64,000 nucleotides of DNA from a virus (lineage: Duplodnaviria > Caudoviricetes), in the IMG/VR virus record IMGVR_UViG_3300011006_000010, positions 32,001 to 96,000 of that record. One strand, given 5' to 3'. Below are positions 3,001-62,603 of this stretch, one piece after another. The notes beneath the pieces are model-generated. The model was not told the DNA's origin. It saw only the letters and a list, made by a program, of their open reading frames with translations, and ran no database searches. The position numbers and the translations under genes were made by a program. Positions within the stretch are counted from its first letter, which is position 1, and every line of letters begins with the position of its first letter.

Positions 3001-6000
3001 CGCTTATGCAAAAGGAACCCCTTCTCTTGTTGGAGAAGAAGGTGCGGAAATTGTAGTAAGAGGCGATGAGTGGTTTACTGTAGGCGATCGTGGTGCTGAA
3101 TTCTTTGCAATCCAGGACGATGACATTGTGTTTACTGCAAGTCAAACAAAGTCTCTTTTAGCAAAAGGTGCCACAAATGGTCGAGGAAAGAAAAAGTCAC
3201 CGGCATTTGCTTCGGGTTCAGGTTCCAAAGTTGGGACATCATCTTCGTCCAAGAAGTCCACTTCTTCTAGTACTTCTAAGAGTACTTCTAACAAGAGTTC
3301 TAGTAAAAAGAAATCTTCTAAGAAGAAGTCAAGCAAGAGTAAAACGTATTTCGATTGGATAGAGAGGAAGATAAAGGCTGTTCAGGATCAATTAGATATT
3401 TTAAGTGCCAAGAAAGACAATGTCTATGATTCTTGGTCTGTTAGAAACGCAGCTTTATCTGAAGAATTGAATTATCTTAAAAAGCAATATGACAATCAGA
3501 TTGCTGCCGCAGATGCTTATTTGAAGGCTGCTAAAAATGTTGGTTTGTCAAGTGCATACGTTACAAAAATTCAAAATGGCACATTGTCTATTCAAGGTAT
3601 CAAGAGCCAAAAGACGATTGATAAGATCAACAAATATCAAGAATACTGGGATAATTACAAGAGTGCCCTTCTTGAAGCGCAGCAGATCCAAAAAGAAATT
3701 GATGATGATTTGGCTGAACAGTTTGCCAATATTAAACAACAATATGACGATCTTAATACTGCTCTGCAGGACAATAATGATCTGCTCGAAGCTCAGGGCG
3801 ATTTATGGCAGTATATTGGAGTTGCTGGTGATAAGGCTAATCTCGATTATTTAAATAATCAGATAGACAATAATAGAAAAATCTTAGAGAATCTTAATAA
3901 AGAATATGCTGAACTATATGACAAGTTAAAAGAAATTACGAATGATGATGATCCGTTAAACTATATCAATTCAACTTCTGAAGGATATGCAAGTTTAAAA
4001 TCTGAATTAGATGGAGTTAATACTGAAATCGTTGAGATGGCATCTGCAATTAGCGAATTGACTAAAGACAAGTTTGACGCCGTTGCTGACGAATTTGAAT
4101 TGAGGTTGGACTATGTTGAGTCTAAGGCGGATCTGGTTAACAGTCTAATGGATTTGGCTGAAACTCAAGGTTATATATCCACAACGAAATATTACGAGGC
4201 TCTGATTGATTTATCTGGCGAAACCATCGAAAAGATGGAATTAGAGAAAAAGAGTCTTGAAGATGCTTTAACTTCTGCCGTATTAGACAAGTCTATCGCT
4301 ATGTATTCTCAGGCTTGGTATGAAATGCTGAATGAAATTCAAAGTGTTAATAATGAAATTATTAGTGCAAAAGAAGAAATGGCGGATTTCAATCAGGAGC
4401 TTAAAGAAGTTTCATGGGATAAATTCGAAAGACTTGAAGATAGTATAGATAATTTCATTGATGAGCTAGAGATGTTCTTTGATTTATTTGAATCGAATGA
4501 TAATATCTTTGATGACAATGGAGCTTTTACTGCTGAGGGATTAGCTGCATTAGGTACTAGAGTATCAATTTATAGAACTTACGCCGAACAGGTCAAGGAA
4601 TATTCTGATGCTCTTGAAGCTTTAAACGAACAGTATAAAGATGATCCATTAAACATAAACTATCTTGACAAGAGAGCAGAACTGCTGCAAAGCCAAAGAG
4701 ATGCAATTAAGAATGCTCAAGATGAGAAAGAGTCAATTAAAGATTTGATTGAAGACGGCTATGATAAACAACTAGACGCTCTTCAGGATTTGATTGATGC
4801 AAGAAAAGAAGCTCTTGAAGATGAAAAAGACGCCTATGAGTATCAAAAGGATATTGCAGAGAAGACTCGTGAGGTTGTAAGATATCAACGTCAGCTGTTA
4901 GCCTATAGTGGAGATACTTCTGAAGAAGGCAGACTCAATGCTCAGAATGCTAGAACAAATCTCCGTGAAGCTCAAGATGATTTAAGAGAAACTCAATGGG
5001 ATAAATACATTGAGGACACTGAAAAGATCCTTGATGAATTATATGACGATGTTGAAGACTGGATCAATAAGCGCTTGGATAATCTTGAAGGCATTCTTCA
5101 GGATGCAATTGAAACCGTTGACACAAACTCGCAAAATATTGCTGCTACAATCACAGAGAAGGCAGACGAGGTTGGATATTCAATCACAAATGAGCTGGAT
5201 GCTATGTTGACTGATTATACTGTTAGCAATTATCAGAATGGTGTTACTAGTGCCTTGTCAACTATTATAGATTTAATAGCTAGATTGAAGATTGCAGCAG
5301 ATAATAATGCTGATTCTAATATGGCTAATAACAACATAGAGAATTATGTTAGCAATCAGGGGCAGGCTTTGGCAGATAAAAATGCCGCAGACGCCGCAGC
5401 AGCAGCCGCTGCCGCAGCAAGCGCTACTACAACAAGTGCCACTAGCGAACCATCTAATAGCACGGATGATAGCACTCCTACTTGGGACTCAGTTCAGGCA
5501 AAAGCTAAGAGCGGTTTGATTCTAAGCGGAACAAAACTTGGCGGAACAACATTTACAGATGCAGAGGTTTCTGTCCTTAAAGCTAATAAAGGCAAGCAGG
5601 TTCTTTATGCAAATGGCAGTGGTGGTTATTATGATGCTACAATCTCTGGCGAAGGAAACTTGTATTATAATAGCAAGGGAACGGTTTATAGATATAATGC
5701 CTCAACTGGTAAAGTGTCGGTTCCTGTTAAATACAAATTAGCAAACTATAAGAAACTTGCTAATAAAGGCAAGGTCGGTTCTATTAGTGCTGCAAATGTA
5801 TGGAAAGAATATAAGGAAGCGTTACATTCTCGTGGCATCAAAGGTTATTCTCGTGGTGGTATTGTGGGTAATCCTGAAGCATTGCTGAAATTAAATGGTG
5901 ATGATCAGTTTACTATCAATACGCTTAAGACTGGAGAATCTGTGTTTGATGTTGCAACTACTAAAGTATTGCAGACGTTTAATAAGCAAGCTCCTATTCT

Positions 6001-42019: not shown

Positions 42020-42080
42020 AATAATTCTCCTATGCTTCTATTTTTCTTTGTCCGAAAAGTGTCACCACTGATGATACTTT

Positions 42081-42163
42081 TTATTTTGTCTCGATGTCCA
42101 GACCTTTGAAATGTTCCTTCATCTCATCTGTCATGCCCTGCGTCCCATGCAGACCTTCTACAT
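42081..42163 (-). pseudogene. Orphan 3' tail of an unknown donor gene
   Basis: Startless frame ..YVEGLHGTQGMTDEMKEHFKGLDIETK*, GC-richer than the upstream sequence. Confidence 0.4.
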
Positions 42164-42241
42164 ATCTATGTCTTCATATTGAGTATAGAATTCATCGTTC
42201 TTATTTTCTCTGGCTTTACTTAGATCTGCTGTTGTTGCCAT
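42158..42241 (-). pseudogene. 27-codon N-terminal stub of an EcoRI-family adenine methyltransferase
   Basis: MATTADLSKARENKNDEFYTQYEDIDM* matches the M.EcoRI-family start 'L.KAK..K.DEFYTQY.DI'; AGGAAGGT RBS. Confidence 0.8.
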
Positions 42242-42271
42242 GTTAATTACCTTCCTAAACAATATAAGATA

Positions 42272-42300
42272 ATTATATTAAATCGAGATGGTAATTTCAA
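42272..42300 (-). promoter_or_regulatory. SigmaA-type promoter for the R-M/Abi cassette
   Basis: TTGAAA-17 bp-TATAAT. Confidence 0.7.
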
Positions 42301-42348
42301 TTGTTAGAAAGAACAAAAAAAAGCGCAAGCAATAAAGCTCACGCAGAT

Positions 42349-42405
42349 TTTTTAACATATTAATGCATTACTTGTGGTGCAAATAGTGTATTAATATGTT
42401 AAAAA
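42349..42405. repeat. 26-bp imperfect inverted repeat
   Basis: TTTTTAACATATTAATGCATTACTTG / CAAATAGTGTATTAATATGTTAAAAA. Confidence 0.8.
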
Positions 42406-42420
42406 GAAAATTTAAATTAT

Positions 42421-42755
42421 GTTGATGTAATCAATGTTTTTCCGTTTAAATGATGTAGGTTAGAACGAGCCTTTATTAGTTGATTTTTTACATCATTTCA
42501 TACATCATACGCATAAATTTTGCGATTAAAATTGCATTGATAAATACAGCATATTTCTCAATAACAGAAATTTGAACTTATAAATTATTTGAAATAACCG
42601 AAAAAACATTGATGAAACCAACATTTTTTTACTTTTTTGTATTTTATTGATTTAATGACTAAAGTAAAATACGATTCAAAATTTAGTTGATTTTTTCAAT
42701 ATATTTTTTAGTTTCAATTTCGAGAATTTCTGTCTTACATCATTTTACATCATTT
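42421..42755. other. Putative attP region with integrase arm-type repeats
   Basis: TACATCA(TTT) at 42489, 42501, 42736, 42746 and inverted at 42423 and 42448; TTAGTTGATTTTTT at 42476 and 42683; AT-rich; directly 3' of the integrase. Confidence 0.6.
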
Positions 42756-60011: not shown

Positions 60012-60665
60012 TTACACATTTATAATGTCTTTTAAATACTTGCATTCATCTAACATGGTATCGCAAAAGTCATGCCACTCTTCTAACTTATGATTTTTTC
60101 TTTGTTTAATGATATTAATCAATGCCTGATAAGACATTTCATATGTTCTCTTTTGCATATATGACGATGGAAGAAGCTGAATCAGCGAATACCAGACATC
60201 TTTTTTAGTAGGATAACGTTCCGTAATGATATCAGCACAATCATCATAATTAACATACAGGGTTCTTAGATTTTCCAAATGGTAAATAAATGGATAGAAC
60301 CAATTATGTAAATCTTCTTCACTCATTTTGTCATGTGCAAAATCTTCGATATCGAATGGCTTCGACATGATTTTATGCATTGTTGATGTTGAGTTGCAAT
60401 TTACTCCAACTTTATATGTATCCATCTCCTTTAAAAGATAAAGAGGTGCAGTCATATCAAATGTGACTCTGATCATTCTCAGATACTTTGCATGTTCTGT
60501 TCCAGCTTTATATAATCGTCTAGCTAGATCCAAATCCTTTTCGCCTAATGTATCGTTTTCTAAATCTGAATCGCTTAATTTCCATGAGTTCATTGGATTC
60601 CTAGCTGCATATACAGCTCTTGCAACATTTGTCACTTTAATGTTCTCAATTTTAATTAGACTCAT
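60012..60665 (-). CDS. Divergent ThyX-like (FAD-dependent thymidylate synthase fold) protein
   Basis: 'H.KYLRMI.V', 'STSTMHK', 'LLP.SY', 'QR..HKL.EW'; canonical RHRx7S absent. Confidence 0.55.
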   Translation of the reverse strand: MSLIKIENIKVTNVARAVYAARNPMNSWKLSDSDLENDTLGEKDLDLARRLYKAGTEHAKYLRMIRVTFDMTAPLYLLKEMDTYKVGVNCNSTSTMHKIMSKPFDIEDFAHDKMSEEDLHNWFYPFIYHLENLRTLYVNYDDCADIITERYPTKKDVWYSLIQLLPSSYMQKRTYEMSYQALINIIKQRKNHKLEEWHDFCDTMLDECKYLKDIINV

Positions 60666-60678
60666 TTTTTCTCCTTTT

Positions 60679-61000
60679 GGATTGCCATCTTATCCTTGTC
60701 ATAGTCGTTAATAATTGGGAGGTATAAAATAGTAGCGTTTTGTCTTGGTTAAGTCGATTAGTTATAAAGATGAAAATAACTATTATGAATTAAATTCTAA
60801 CTATGGCAAGGACAAGACGACAATCCTTTTATACAACCTTCTTCCTACAAAACTGCTAACCAAGCTATTTTTTGATAGTACCCCCTAACTTTTTCAATGC
60901 CGACACATCAGCAGATTTATTTTTTTGGTTATACTATTCGGGAAAGGATAGCTGATGTATGATTGAAATCCTGATCAGCAGCTTGGTAAGAAGAAGGTTG
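60679..61000 (-). ncRNA. Two tandem highly structured RNA domains of unknown class
   Basis: 31-bp and 27-bp closing stems plus inner stems, with G-U pairs biased to the minus strand. Confidence 0.65.
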
Positions 61001-61007
61001 AAATAAC

Positions 61008-62603
61008 CTATTTAATCTTAAATTCGTTTGTAATTACTTGAAGATAATGTTTTCTTCCAAAATATCCTGACTGCAATGTGCCAATGCAATACAAGTCATC
61101 TCCAAACAATTCTGCATCTTGAGCAAATGCCTTCGTTTTATCTGACACATTCCAAATAATAAGTCTAACTTCGTCTTTCTGAACTGGAGAAAGATATAAA
61201 TGATTGCCTTTCCCCATTTCTCCAACAACGAAATCTGAAATATTTACTTTGAATTTTAAACTTTCAAAACCGTGTCCTGAAATATTGTCAGCTTTGCTGA
61301 CAATTTTAATCAAATCATCACTCAACTCTAATGCGTCAATTTCGGCATCGTAGCTTTCTTCAGTTGAGTATTGATACTCAACGAAGCATTCTTCTAGATA
61401 ATTTTTAAAATCTTGAATGTCATCTTTTGAAATGCTTCTTACACCAAAGCTATTTGGATGTCCTAAAAAATATCCGAATCCAGAATCCTCACATATCTGT
61501 CTCATGTCCTCTGTATTAATACTTCTGCACGATCCTGAGAAATATCCGTTTTTTTCTTTTAGGACAAATACTGGTCTTTGGTATTCTCCAAGAACCTTGT
61601 TTGCAATTAAACCACTTAGTCCAGAATCCTGGTCATCAATCATAACGAATATGATCTTGTCATCCTTTTGTTCTTCAAGTAGTTCTTTATTGGCTTTCAT
61701 TACATTAGAAACAATTGCGTCTTGCTTTTTCTTAAGACCATTAAATCCAGAAATATATTTCTTAATTTCCTGATCATTGTCTGTCAAGAAAGCTTCGACA
61801 GCCATTTTATTTTCATTCATTCGCTGACATGCATTAATCTTCGGAGCAACAGAGAACGATACTGCACGAGAGTTAAATCCAAATCCACCAACAATTTTTT
61901 TTAGAGTTTTATTTTTTAAATGGTCTAGTCCGTCTTTAATAAGAAATCTGTTTTCCATATATTTTTCAGAAACATCCATCATGTCTCCAAGCAAAGCACA
62001 GCAACAAAGATCTGCATATTGTTCTGCAAAATTAGTTTTCATTTCACTGTCTATATAATTTATAAATTTATAAACGACACCGCCACCTGAAAGCTGATCG
62101 TTTTCCGTTCCATAAGAACTTACTAATGTAATATAGTCTTCGTATGGTTCATCTCCAATATGATGGTGATCAAGAACAACAATCTCTTTGCCCATTTCAT
62201 ATAATTTTTTATAATTATCTATTACCGAATCTAATGAATCTACGATAATGGCAACATCAATATCTGTGCAAAATTCCACAAAACCTTTTGTCGTTCCGTG
62301 TATTTTGCCTTCGTTAATGTAATATGAAACATCGGCTCCCATATCTTTTAAATATCTGGTCATGATTGTTCCAGACATAATTCCATCTGTGTCAACGTCA
62401 TACAATACACCGAATCTTTTCTTATTTGCTACGCCATTGATCACAATATCACTAGCTTCTTTGATGTTAGGAAGAACGTCAAAGGGCAAAAGGTCTTCTT
62501 CCATAGGCTCTAAGAATGCATCGATATTTTTAATCCCCCTGTTTTTCAAAATTGTATTAACAATTTTTCTAGGCTCCATCCCAGAAACATCCAAGCTAAC
62601 CAT
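61008..62603 (-). CDS. recJ: RecJ-like DHH ssDNA exonuclease
   Basis: 'YDVDTDG', 'LDHH', 'PKINA..R', 'GSCRS', 'GH..SFG'. Confidence 0.88.
   Translation of the reverse strand: MVSLDVSGMEPRKIVNTILKNRGIKNIDAFLEPMEEDLLPFDVLPNIKEASDIVINGVANKKRFGVLYDVDTDGIMSGTIMTRYLKDMGADVSYYINEGKIHGTTKGFVEFCTDIDVAIIVDSLDSVIDNYKKLYEMGKEIVVLDHHHIGDEPYEDYITLVSSYGTENDQLSGGGVVYKFINYIDSEMKTNFAEQYADLCCCALLGDMMDVSEKYMENRFLIKDGLDHLKNKTLKKIVGGFGFNSRAVSFSVAPKINACQRMNENKMAVEAFLTDNDQEIKKYISGFNGLKKKQDAIVSNVMKANKELLEEQKDDKIIFVMIDDQDSGLSGLIANKVLGEYQRPVFVLKEKNGYFSGSCRSINTEDMRQICEDSGFGYFLGHPNSFGVRSISKDDIQDFKNYLEECFVEYQYSTEESYDAEIDALELSDDLIKIVSKADNISGHGFESLKFKVNISDFVVGEMGKGNHLYLSPVQKDEVRLIIWNVSDKTKAFAQDAELFGDDLYCIGTLQSGYFGRKHYLQVITNEFKIK

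Follow-up and report, generated by a model that had tools for sequence, protein, structure and literature searches.

The recJ-thyX gap and its two stem-closed domains

The DNA analysed here (hereafter the window, 64,000 nucleotides in length) comprises bases 32001-96000 of a 118,568-bp IMG/VR virus record, which has 36% G+C and is complete according to CheckV. The gap between the recJ-like and thyX-like genes was located at 60666-61007 (342 nt), corresponding to approximately 92.7-93.0 kb in whole-genome numbering, and both flanking open reading frames (ORFs) lay on the minus strand. The features of the locus, in window positions, are as follows.

61008..62603, minus strand: DHH/RecJ-like exonuclease gene, upstream of the gap (531 aa; Pfam DHH, 4.8e-17)
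60834..61000, minus strand: E1 (domain 1), 167 nt, defined by folds, stem scan and pair count
60970..61000, minus strand: 5' arm of the E1 closing stem, 31 nt, beginning 7 nt past the RecJ-like stop codon
60962-60968/60892-60898 and 60951-60960/60903-60912, minus strand: stems of the E1 inner hairpin (78 nt), with a 38-nt loop at 60913-60950
60865-60891, minus strand: E1 3' internal loop, 27 nt, within the closing stem
60879..60888, minus strand: E1 G-rich motif UUAGGGGGUA, in the 3' internal loop
60834..60864, minus strand: 3' arm of the E1 closing stem, 31 nt, defined by stem scan and pair count
60679..60826, minus strand: E2 (domain 2), 148 nt, defined by folds, stem scan and pair count
60715..60724, minus strand: E2 C-rich motif UACCUCCCAA, unpaired, resembling the 3' tail of 16S rRNA
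60671..60676, minus strand: thyX Shine-Dalgarno sequence AAGGAG (start codon at 60663-60665)
60012..60665, minus strand: ThyX-like gene, downstream of the gap (217 aa; Pfam Thy1, 8.6e-07, exceeding the curated cut-off)

The initial annotation described the gap as unusual for a tightly packed operon. It was found to be large but not unique, being one of 27 gaps of at least 100 nt and one of eight of at least 325 nt genome-wide, as counted by crude ORF calling across the genome. The annotated absence of a U-tract was correct, as a search of the gap for a terminator-like site returned none. Promoter-like hexamers occurred in the gap at the frequency expected from shuffles. A sigma-70-like pair (TTGCCA, 16-nt spacer, CATAAT; 10 of 12 matches) was observed within E2 at 60782-60809 on the minus strand, and transcription initiated there would yield an RNA devoid of the E2 5' arm; sigma-70-like sites were about as frequent in the region as in shuffles.

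As minus-strand RNA, the gap folded into two adjacent stem-closed domains, E1 and E2. The minimum free energy (MFE) of 60660-61015 on this strand was -104.75 kcal/mol (z = -10.2 against dinucleotide shuffles), while that of the plus strand was -90.5 kcal/mol (z = -4.2). In the case of E1, the closing stem (60970-61000 with 60834-60864) contained 25 Watson-Crick pairs, 5 G-U pairs and 1 C-U mismatch over 31 positions, exactly as had been annotated, and the two inner stems that had been proposed, UUUCAAU/AUUGAAA and AUACAUCAGC/GCUGAUGUGU, were both present in the MFE structure. E2 began 7 nt after E1 and terminated 2 nt ahead of the thyX Shine-Dalgarno sequence. Its 28-bp closing stem (60799-60826 with 60679-60706) enclosed 92 nt, mostly unpaired, together with a small UAGUUAU/AUAACUA hairpin, and the interior of E1 measured approximately 105 nt. 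Each of the closing stems, of 31 bp (E1) and 28 bp (E2), had one non-pairing position, and the earlier count of G-U pairs at 9 of the 11 non-Watson-Crick positions holds for the two closing stems together.

To place these stems in their genomic context, ungapped long-range stems were scanned on both strands of the whole 118,568-bp genome. The closing stems of E1 and E2 were the top two of the genome on the minus strand, with scores of 26.5 and 23.9, while on the plus strand they scored only 16.5 and 19.1. The next unrelated minus-strand stems scored 19 or less, except for an inverted repeat at 42407-42636, and stems scoring at least 23.9 numbered approximately four in 541 kb of other thyX/recJ phage loci. 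Moreover, when the genome was folded in sliding windows of 180 nt, 60821-61000 was the most stable on the minus strand. The structure of E1 and E2 is real.

The pseudoknot suggested in the initial annotation fared differently. The two octamers proposed to pair between the E1 loop (60950-60943) and the tail (60886-60879) were present, but shuffling also produced an 8-bp loop-tail run in 9% of cases, and 10% of shuffles equalled the strongest duplex between loop and tail (-9.9 kcal/mol). A competing pairing of AUAGUAUAACC with GGGGGUACUAU uses the same bases. The E1 pseudoknot is thus unsupported and at chance level (p ~0.09).

The inverted repeat at 42407-42636 (genome 74407-74636) has 42-nt arms and scored similarly on both strands (23.7 and 22.3). 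It is situated in a 730-nt gap (42020-42749), which is longer than any other gene-free part of the minus-strand arm. The repeat lies a few kb beyond the turn of gene orientation and cumulative GC skew at approximately 70 kb, and is regarded as a candidate origin or divergent control region. As for the phage itself, a sequencing-run search for the stretch returned three DNA runs from one study and no RNA run. Every cultured phage with a related RecJ-like protein infects Bacillota and, as strong Shine-Dalgarno sites are also present, the host is probably a member of Bacillota.

Related phages and selection on pairing

Three near-identical assemblies of the source phage were 100% identical in the gap and thus carried no covariation information. 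Protein searches led to one closer lineage, represented by L093, an ENA contig of 77,952 bp. Its RecJ-like protein and ThyX were 63% and 56% identical to those of the window phage, and it encodes a UG27 reverse transcriptase (RT) that is 68% identical. Two tandem stem-closed elements were found right behind the RecJ-like stop codon of L093. A second relative, L102, showed 79% nucleotide identity to L093 across the thyX block and carried homologues of both elements.

L093 11161-11513, sense strand: R1, 353 nt, 38-bp stem
L093 11514-11735, sense strand: R2, 222 nt, 29-bp stem
L102 3917-4316: E1', homologue of R1, 400 nt
L102 4325-4485: E2', homologue of R2, 161 nt

R1 and R2 were the best two long-range stems in the 38 kb of L093 scanned, with scores of 30.6 and 25.7 on the sense strand versus 19.5 and 21.5 on the antisense strand. 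The closing stems of the relatives measured 29-38 bp, and the second element stopped 2-9 nt before the next Shine-Dalgarno sequence in all three phages. Downstream of R2, L093 has a small ORF with its own Shine-Dalgarno sequence, and the L102 pair precedes the same small-ORF/thyX block, while an integrase and small ORFs lie upstream of it and recJ does not. Since the L102 pair was kept without an upstream recJ, the elements move together with the genes that follow them, in the manner of a leader. Position and architecture are thus conserved in two related phages.

Two further observations concern these neighbourhoods. The small ORF after the second element (L093 11752-11942, L102 approximately 4505-4700) is conserved, encodes approximately 63 aa and looks hydrophobic; it is absent from the window, where thyX directly follows E2. 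L102 also carries a third element, E0, at 3724-3894, with a perfect 20-bp closing stem and an interior of approximately 130 nt. E0 occupies the place of the whole replication module of L093, and the number of elements therefore differs among close relatives.

In sequence, the window elements did not detectably resemble those of L093 (z no higher than 1.2 in local alignment), while the flanking proteins were approximately 60% identical. A covariance model of the 3' half of R1 from the relatives did not detect E1 in the window (best match 5.1 bits, E = 0.7). The homology of the window elements to those of the relatives is accordingly proposed from position, architecture and two short motifs only. 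Wider searches were also conducted. The gap had no blastn match among 50,697 phage records, and none of 80 IMG/VR ThyX loci was similar to it by blastn or nhmmer. A motif search of IMG/VR with words from R1 and R2 returned none, and a 17-mer searched in JGI metagenomes gave 55 seed-only matches, as expected by chance. No such gap was present in L087, the ThyX of which is 64% identical, and the four loci with RecJ relatives of 43-44% identity (L082, L083, L094 and L095) had a DNA polymerase III alpha gene directly next and no elements. For L082, stop-codon recoding was considered and rejected, as the long ORF ran past the end of the locus.

Other long stems were noticed near thyX in these searches. 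In two ThyX phage contigs (L037 3858-4376 and L027 2242-2760), 31-nt arms enclose 457 nt downstream of thyX, with scores of 26.5 on the sense and 21.3 on the antisense strand, and the arrangement looks like a small gene inside an RNA stem. Very long hairpins were present near thyX in two IMG/VR contigs (L012 4004-4245 and L020 5014-5131, with arms of 85 and 39 nt, respectively).

The survival of a stem of approximately 30 bp despite the lack of similarity between the window and L093 indicates selection on pairing. The four closing stems of these two phages contained 104 Watson-Crick pairs, 17 G-U pairs, 1 A-C pair and 4 other positions. The ratio of G-U to A-C was thus 17:1 (binomial p = 7e-5), on a sense strand that is not G+T-rich; two terminal G-U pairs were possibly favoured by the scoring, and the ratio without them was 15:1. 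Between L093 and L102, the elements were 65-66% identical overall, which is below the 79% of the adjacent coding DNA, while perfect conservation was confined to islands, namely the stem arms (with runs of 20 and 15 nt) and a few interior blocks. Among the 20 pairs of the R2 stem, 4 had one-sided, pair-preserving changes and none was broken, and the central mismatch remained a mismatch in L102 (U-U to U-C). In the case of R1, 11 of 61 predicted pairs had changed on both sides with the pair kept; these changes were mostly interior, with 4 in one interior hairpin and 1 in the closing stem. The R1-type stem of L102 had two A-C mismatches, the arms being paired from sequence.

Taken together, the 17:1 bias toward G-U and the pair-preserving and compensatory changes between L093 and L102 indicate that the structure is selected on the transcribed strand, so the earlier proposal of selection on RNA instead of a DNA palindrome was borne out. 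G-T wobbles are tolerated in DNA hairpins too, and the strand bias by itself would thus be compatible both with RNA and with single-stranded DNA of the sense strand. Accordingly, the hairpins might work as single-stranded DNA, serving as a priming or primosome-assembly site, a replication or recombination site, or a recombinase target. The elements adjoin the DnaB, AAA_24 and RecJ-like genes of a replication module, and L102 and L093 differ by a whole replication block exactly at the elements. However, the cumulative GC skew turns at approximately 70 kb and at the genome ends and not at 92.7-93.0 kb, and the gap contained no iterons, direct repeats or distinct AT-rich unwinding stretch. An origin of replication at the gap was therefore rejected for want of support from GC skew. 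Moreover, in L102 no replication genes adjoin the elements, which are nevertheless retained, and their distance to the next ribosome-binding site is preserved; a role at the message level would fit this better. A function as single-stranded DNA is thus considered improbable.

A further explanation is that the elements are selfish palindromic insertions, similar to MITE or Correia elements, with terminal inverted repeats of approximately 30 bp that fold incidentally when transcribed. Terminal inverted repeats do flank a variable interior here, the number of elements varies (E0 of L102), and L087 and the distant RecJ relatives are without the gap. However, E1 and E2 are each single-copy in the phage and their database matches were at chance level, so neither is a detectable multi-copy mobile element. 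A 20-nt arm word searched in one genome each of 185,579 species gave two chance-level matches of 22-26 nt, and a search of IMG/VR with the E0 arm returned nothing but single, unrelated matches of 18-25 nt. No target-site duplications or flanking direct repeat were visible in the sequence, and neutral inverted repeats would not produce the 17:1 G-U bias or the pair-preserving substitutions. This explanation was judged very unlikely.

RNA families and the UG27 reverse transcriptase

Whether the gap belongs to a catalogued RNA family was determined with Rfam 15. The gap reached the gathering threshold of no family, in agreement with the initial annotation, which had recognised none. The best matches were plant microRNA precursor models, with 14.6-24.5 bits against thresholds of 75-200; these matches, and those of snoRNA type at permissive E-values, were read as chance, and the corresponding gap or locus of the relatives returned nothing. 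Thus, the tandem pair is a new structured RNA under RNA-level selection and outside the catalogued families. An analogy to type III antitoxins had also been drawn. A ToxI-like antitoxin consists of tandem direct repeats of approximately 36 nt, followed by a toxin endoribonuclease gene. The gap contained no tandem direct repeats and no toxin gene was adjacent, the next gene being that of ThyX, and the analogy was therefore dropped.

The phage also encodes a UG27 RT (genome 112211-113491; PADLOC RT_UG27, E = 4.8e-125), which had escaped the initial annotation. RNA units of UG27 RTs have been described (Mestre et al. 2022, PMC9226505; 10.64898/2026.09.22.753630). According to the latter, a preprint, most units measure 149 or 167 nt (modal lengths), sequences are diverse, and the main hairpin is broken by an internal loop of asymmetric form; the RT begins copying at AUC within AUCNNNNNNNUANAG and stops past UUYA, extra units occur in neighbouring intergenic regions, and some clades are missed by the model (10.64898/2026.09.22.753630). 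Accordingly, E1 and E2 could be non-canonical templates or partners of the UG27 RT, that is, dispersed units copied into short hairpin cDNAs. The RT is shared by the window phage and L093, the lengths of E1 (167 nt) and E2 (148 nt) are close to the modal lengths, and UUCA is placed directly 5' of the inner hairpin in both.

To evaluate this, a unit was defined by the priming motif AUC-N7-UANAG 3' of a central hairpin and by a length of approximately 135, 149 or 167 nt. All six true units of the window phage and L093 carried YUC-N7-UANAG-AAAG-AYACC and a lower-stem strand UGAUUUUC, and this motif was absent from the gap. A model of the conserved 76-nt region scored 43-55 bits on the six true units; with filters off, its scores did not exceed 3.2 bits for window 60600-61100 or 5.7 bits for the L093 gap. 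A regular-expression scan for the priming motif matched only the three known units. True units further have lower stems of only approximately 15 bp, together with a base hairpin, the loop of which base-pairs to AYACC (the GAYACC pseudoknot); the gap is without this hairpin and pairing partner. The same genome encodes the RT, with the gap approximately 19 kb downstream of the RT gene and outside the intergenic regions that neighbour it. Since the homologous elements of the relatives measured 161-400 nt (353, 222, 400 and 161), the match in length is a coincidence of one phage. A role as RT templates or partners is therefore very unlikely, and this negative result indicates that such units should not be assigned by length and architecture alone.

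The three true units beside the RT were located at genome 108269-108431 and 110190-110528 (L088 4270-4432 and 6191-6529). Their neighbours include a 148-aa accessory protein (PADLOC RTas346) and a 351-aa ORF without a family match. The unit model gave one weak extra match at L088 5162-5198 (14 bits, E = 0.004), inside an ORF.

Possible roles and comparison with known systems

As described above, the flanking genes are on the same strand with no terminator-like site between them, and the closing stems are the top two genome-wide on the sense strand only, as they are in L093. Moreover, a near-perfect helix of 28-38 bp just ahead of the ribosome-binding site is conserved with the downstream block. 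These observations point to E1 and E2 being processing or stability stalks of the RNase III type in a leader of the thyX operon, which is our preferred explanation, although it is held tentatively. According to this explanation, E1 and E2 would be tandem cis-acting structures inside a long minus-strand early/replication transcript. Host RNase III would cut the 28-31-bp stalks, or the stalks would be left uncut and block exonucleases. Either way, the nucleotide-metabolism genes led by thyX would gain a 5' end of their own, a few bases ahead of the ribosome-binding site, and the stability and expression of the thyX block would be uncoupled from the upstream replication genes. The interiors may additionally come free as small RNAs. 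In proposing stalks, we infer that the gap is transcribed, that the stalks are cleaved and that stability is affected.

The preferred explanation was compared with what is known of RNase III. A continuous helix of at least approximately 20 bp on the transcribed strand, as expected of an RNase III stalk, was present. The B. subtilis enzyme, which is of narrow specificity, cuts rRNA stalks, the scRNA precursor and early mRNA of phage SP82 (PMC4838370). In this phage, a search for an RNase III domain or a dsRNA-binding domain returned none, and thus a host enzyme must be assumed. The explanation by stalks does not account for the conservation of two tandem elements. A simple processing site requires approximately 20-60 nt only. 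The large interiors, together with the conserved blocks of the relatives and the covarying hairpin in their first element, therefore suggest a function beyond a stalk.

Such a function could reside in short motifs shared among the elements, which were tested post hoc and are treated as leads. The 10-mer UACCUCCCAA was identical in E2 and R2, elements that are otherwise unalignable, and a shared 10-mer with at least five G/C occurred in 1.3% of shuffles (P = 0.013). ACCUCC had just 11 occurrences on the 118.5-kb sense strand. CCUCC was found exactly once in each second element (E2, R2 and E2'), where it was predicted to be unpaired, and never in the first elements, and an unpaired CCUCCCAA was present in the second elements of all three phages. 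In the first elements (E1 and those of both relatives), UAGGGG was located immediately 5' of the 3' arm. The first elements of the relatives also conserve GAAAGGAAGGUGACCAAUC, a near-perfect Bacillota Shine-Dalgarno sequence with no start codon behind it. The G-rich and C-rich motifs could form a duplex of 11 bp in the window (-11.9 kcal/mol).

On the basis of these motifs, the stalks might merely excise the interiors, which would then be released as stable trans-acting phage small RNAs. The CCUCCC of E2 is similar to the seeds with which Bacillota small RNAs reach Shine-Dalgarno regions, while the tracts of E1 are Shine-Dalgarno-like, so E1 and E2 could pair with one another, or bind ribosomes or messages of the host or phage. 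The covarying interior hairpin in the first element of the relatives is consistent with this. However, the motif duplex was weak in the relatives (approximately -6 kcal/mol), and beyond the motifs the interiors of the second elements showed little conservation, L093 and L102 differing there by a 60-nt indel. Trans-acting small RNAs are thus doubtful as the main function, and the more specific proposal, namely a new class of phage small RNA excised by RNase III, with CCUCCC and the G-rich tract acting on ribosome-binding sites or ribosomes, is rather unlikely. The remaining weight is divided among a role as single-stranded DNA, mobile DNA, a template of atypical kind for the RT, and explanations not yet conceived.

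The annotation of large gut phages is nearly all protein-based, and the RNA-level organisation of their long operons is little charted. In this regard, an uncatalogued pair of RNA domains was selected in three phage genomes despite complete sequence turnover, and the pair is tied to the beginning of a nucleotide-metabolism gene block. Should RNase III indeed act on the stalks, they would provide a testable case of a Bacillota-type phage partitioning a 40-kb transcript. If the interiors are released, they would be new phage small RNAs with motifs like a ribosome-binding site and its complement; a new small-RNA class of this kind could retune host or phage translation, or E1 and E2 could buffer each other as an RNA-RNA pair.

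Several known systems resemble the tandem pair in part. UG27 units share with E1 and E2 the same phage, unit-like lengths, a hairpin with an asymmetric loop, a tandem arrangement and sequence diversity. Unlike those units, E1 and E2 have neither the priming motif nor the base hairpin, and the conserved lower-stem sequence and the partner for the pseudoknot are likewise missing. Their closing stems are approximately double the length, the RT is 19 kb away, and homologues reach 400 nt. Among miniature inverted-repeat elements, those of the Correia/ERIC type form structures in mRNA that RNase III cleaves. They are similar in having inverted repeats of approximately 26-30 nt around an interior of 100-150 nt and in being co-transcribed with their neighbours, whereas E1 and E2 were unrepeated in the searches, lack target duplications, and show strand-biased wobbles and compensatory evolution.

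In the first elements, purine tracts that resemble a Shine-Dalgarno sequence but precede no start codon recall the STAB-SD and polypurine 5' stabilisers of Bacillota mRNAs, and the unpaired CCUCCC of the second elements recalls C-rich-seed small RNAs such as RsaE/RoxS. In contrast to both, the motifs here are inside stem-closed domains, and their binding to ribosomes or targets is putative.

The preferred comparison is with RNase III stalks. In bacteria, RNase III processes the stems on either side of 16S and 23S rRNA, as well as sites in phage T7 messages and the lambda N-leader. The tandem pair shares with RNase III stalks a long near-perfect helix that brackets an interior, a polycistronic setting directly ahead of a ribosome-binding site, and pairing that is kept while the sequence drifts. 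However, the classical phage RNase III sites are single hairpins of approximately 50-60 nt, whereas two adjacent elements of 148-400 nt with large interiors are present here, the first marked by a conserved motif rich in G and the second by one rich in C, and cleavage of these elements is predicted only.
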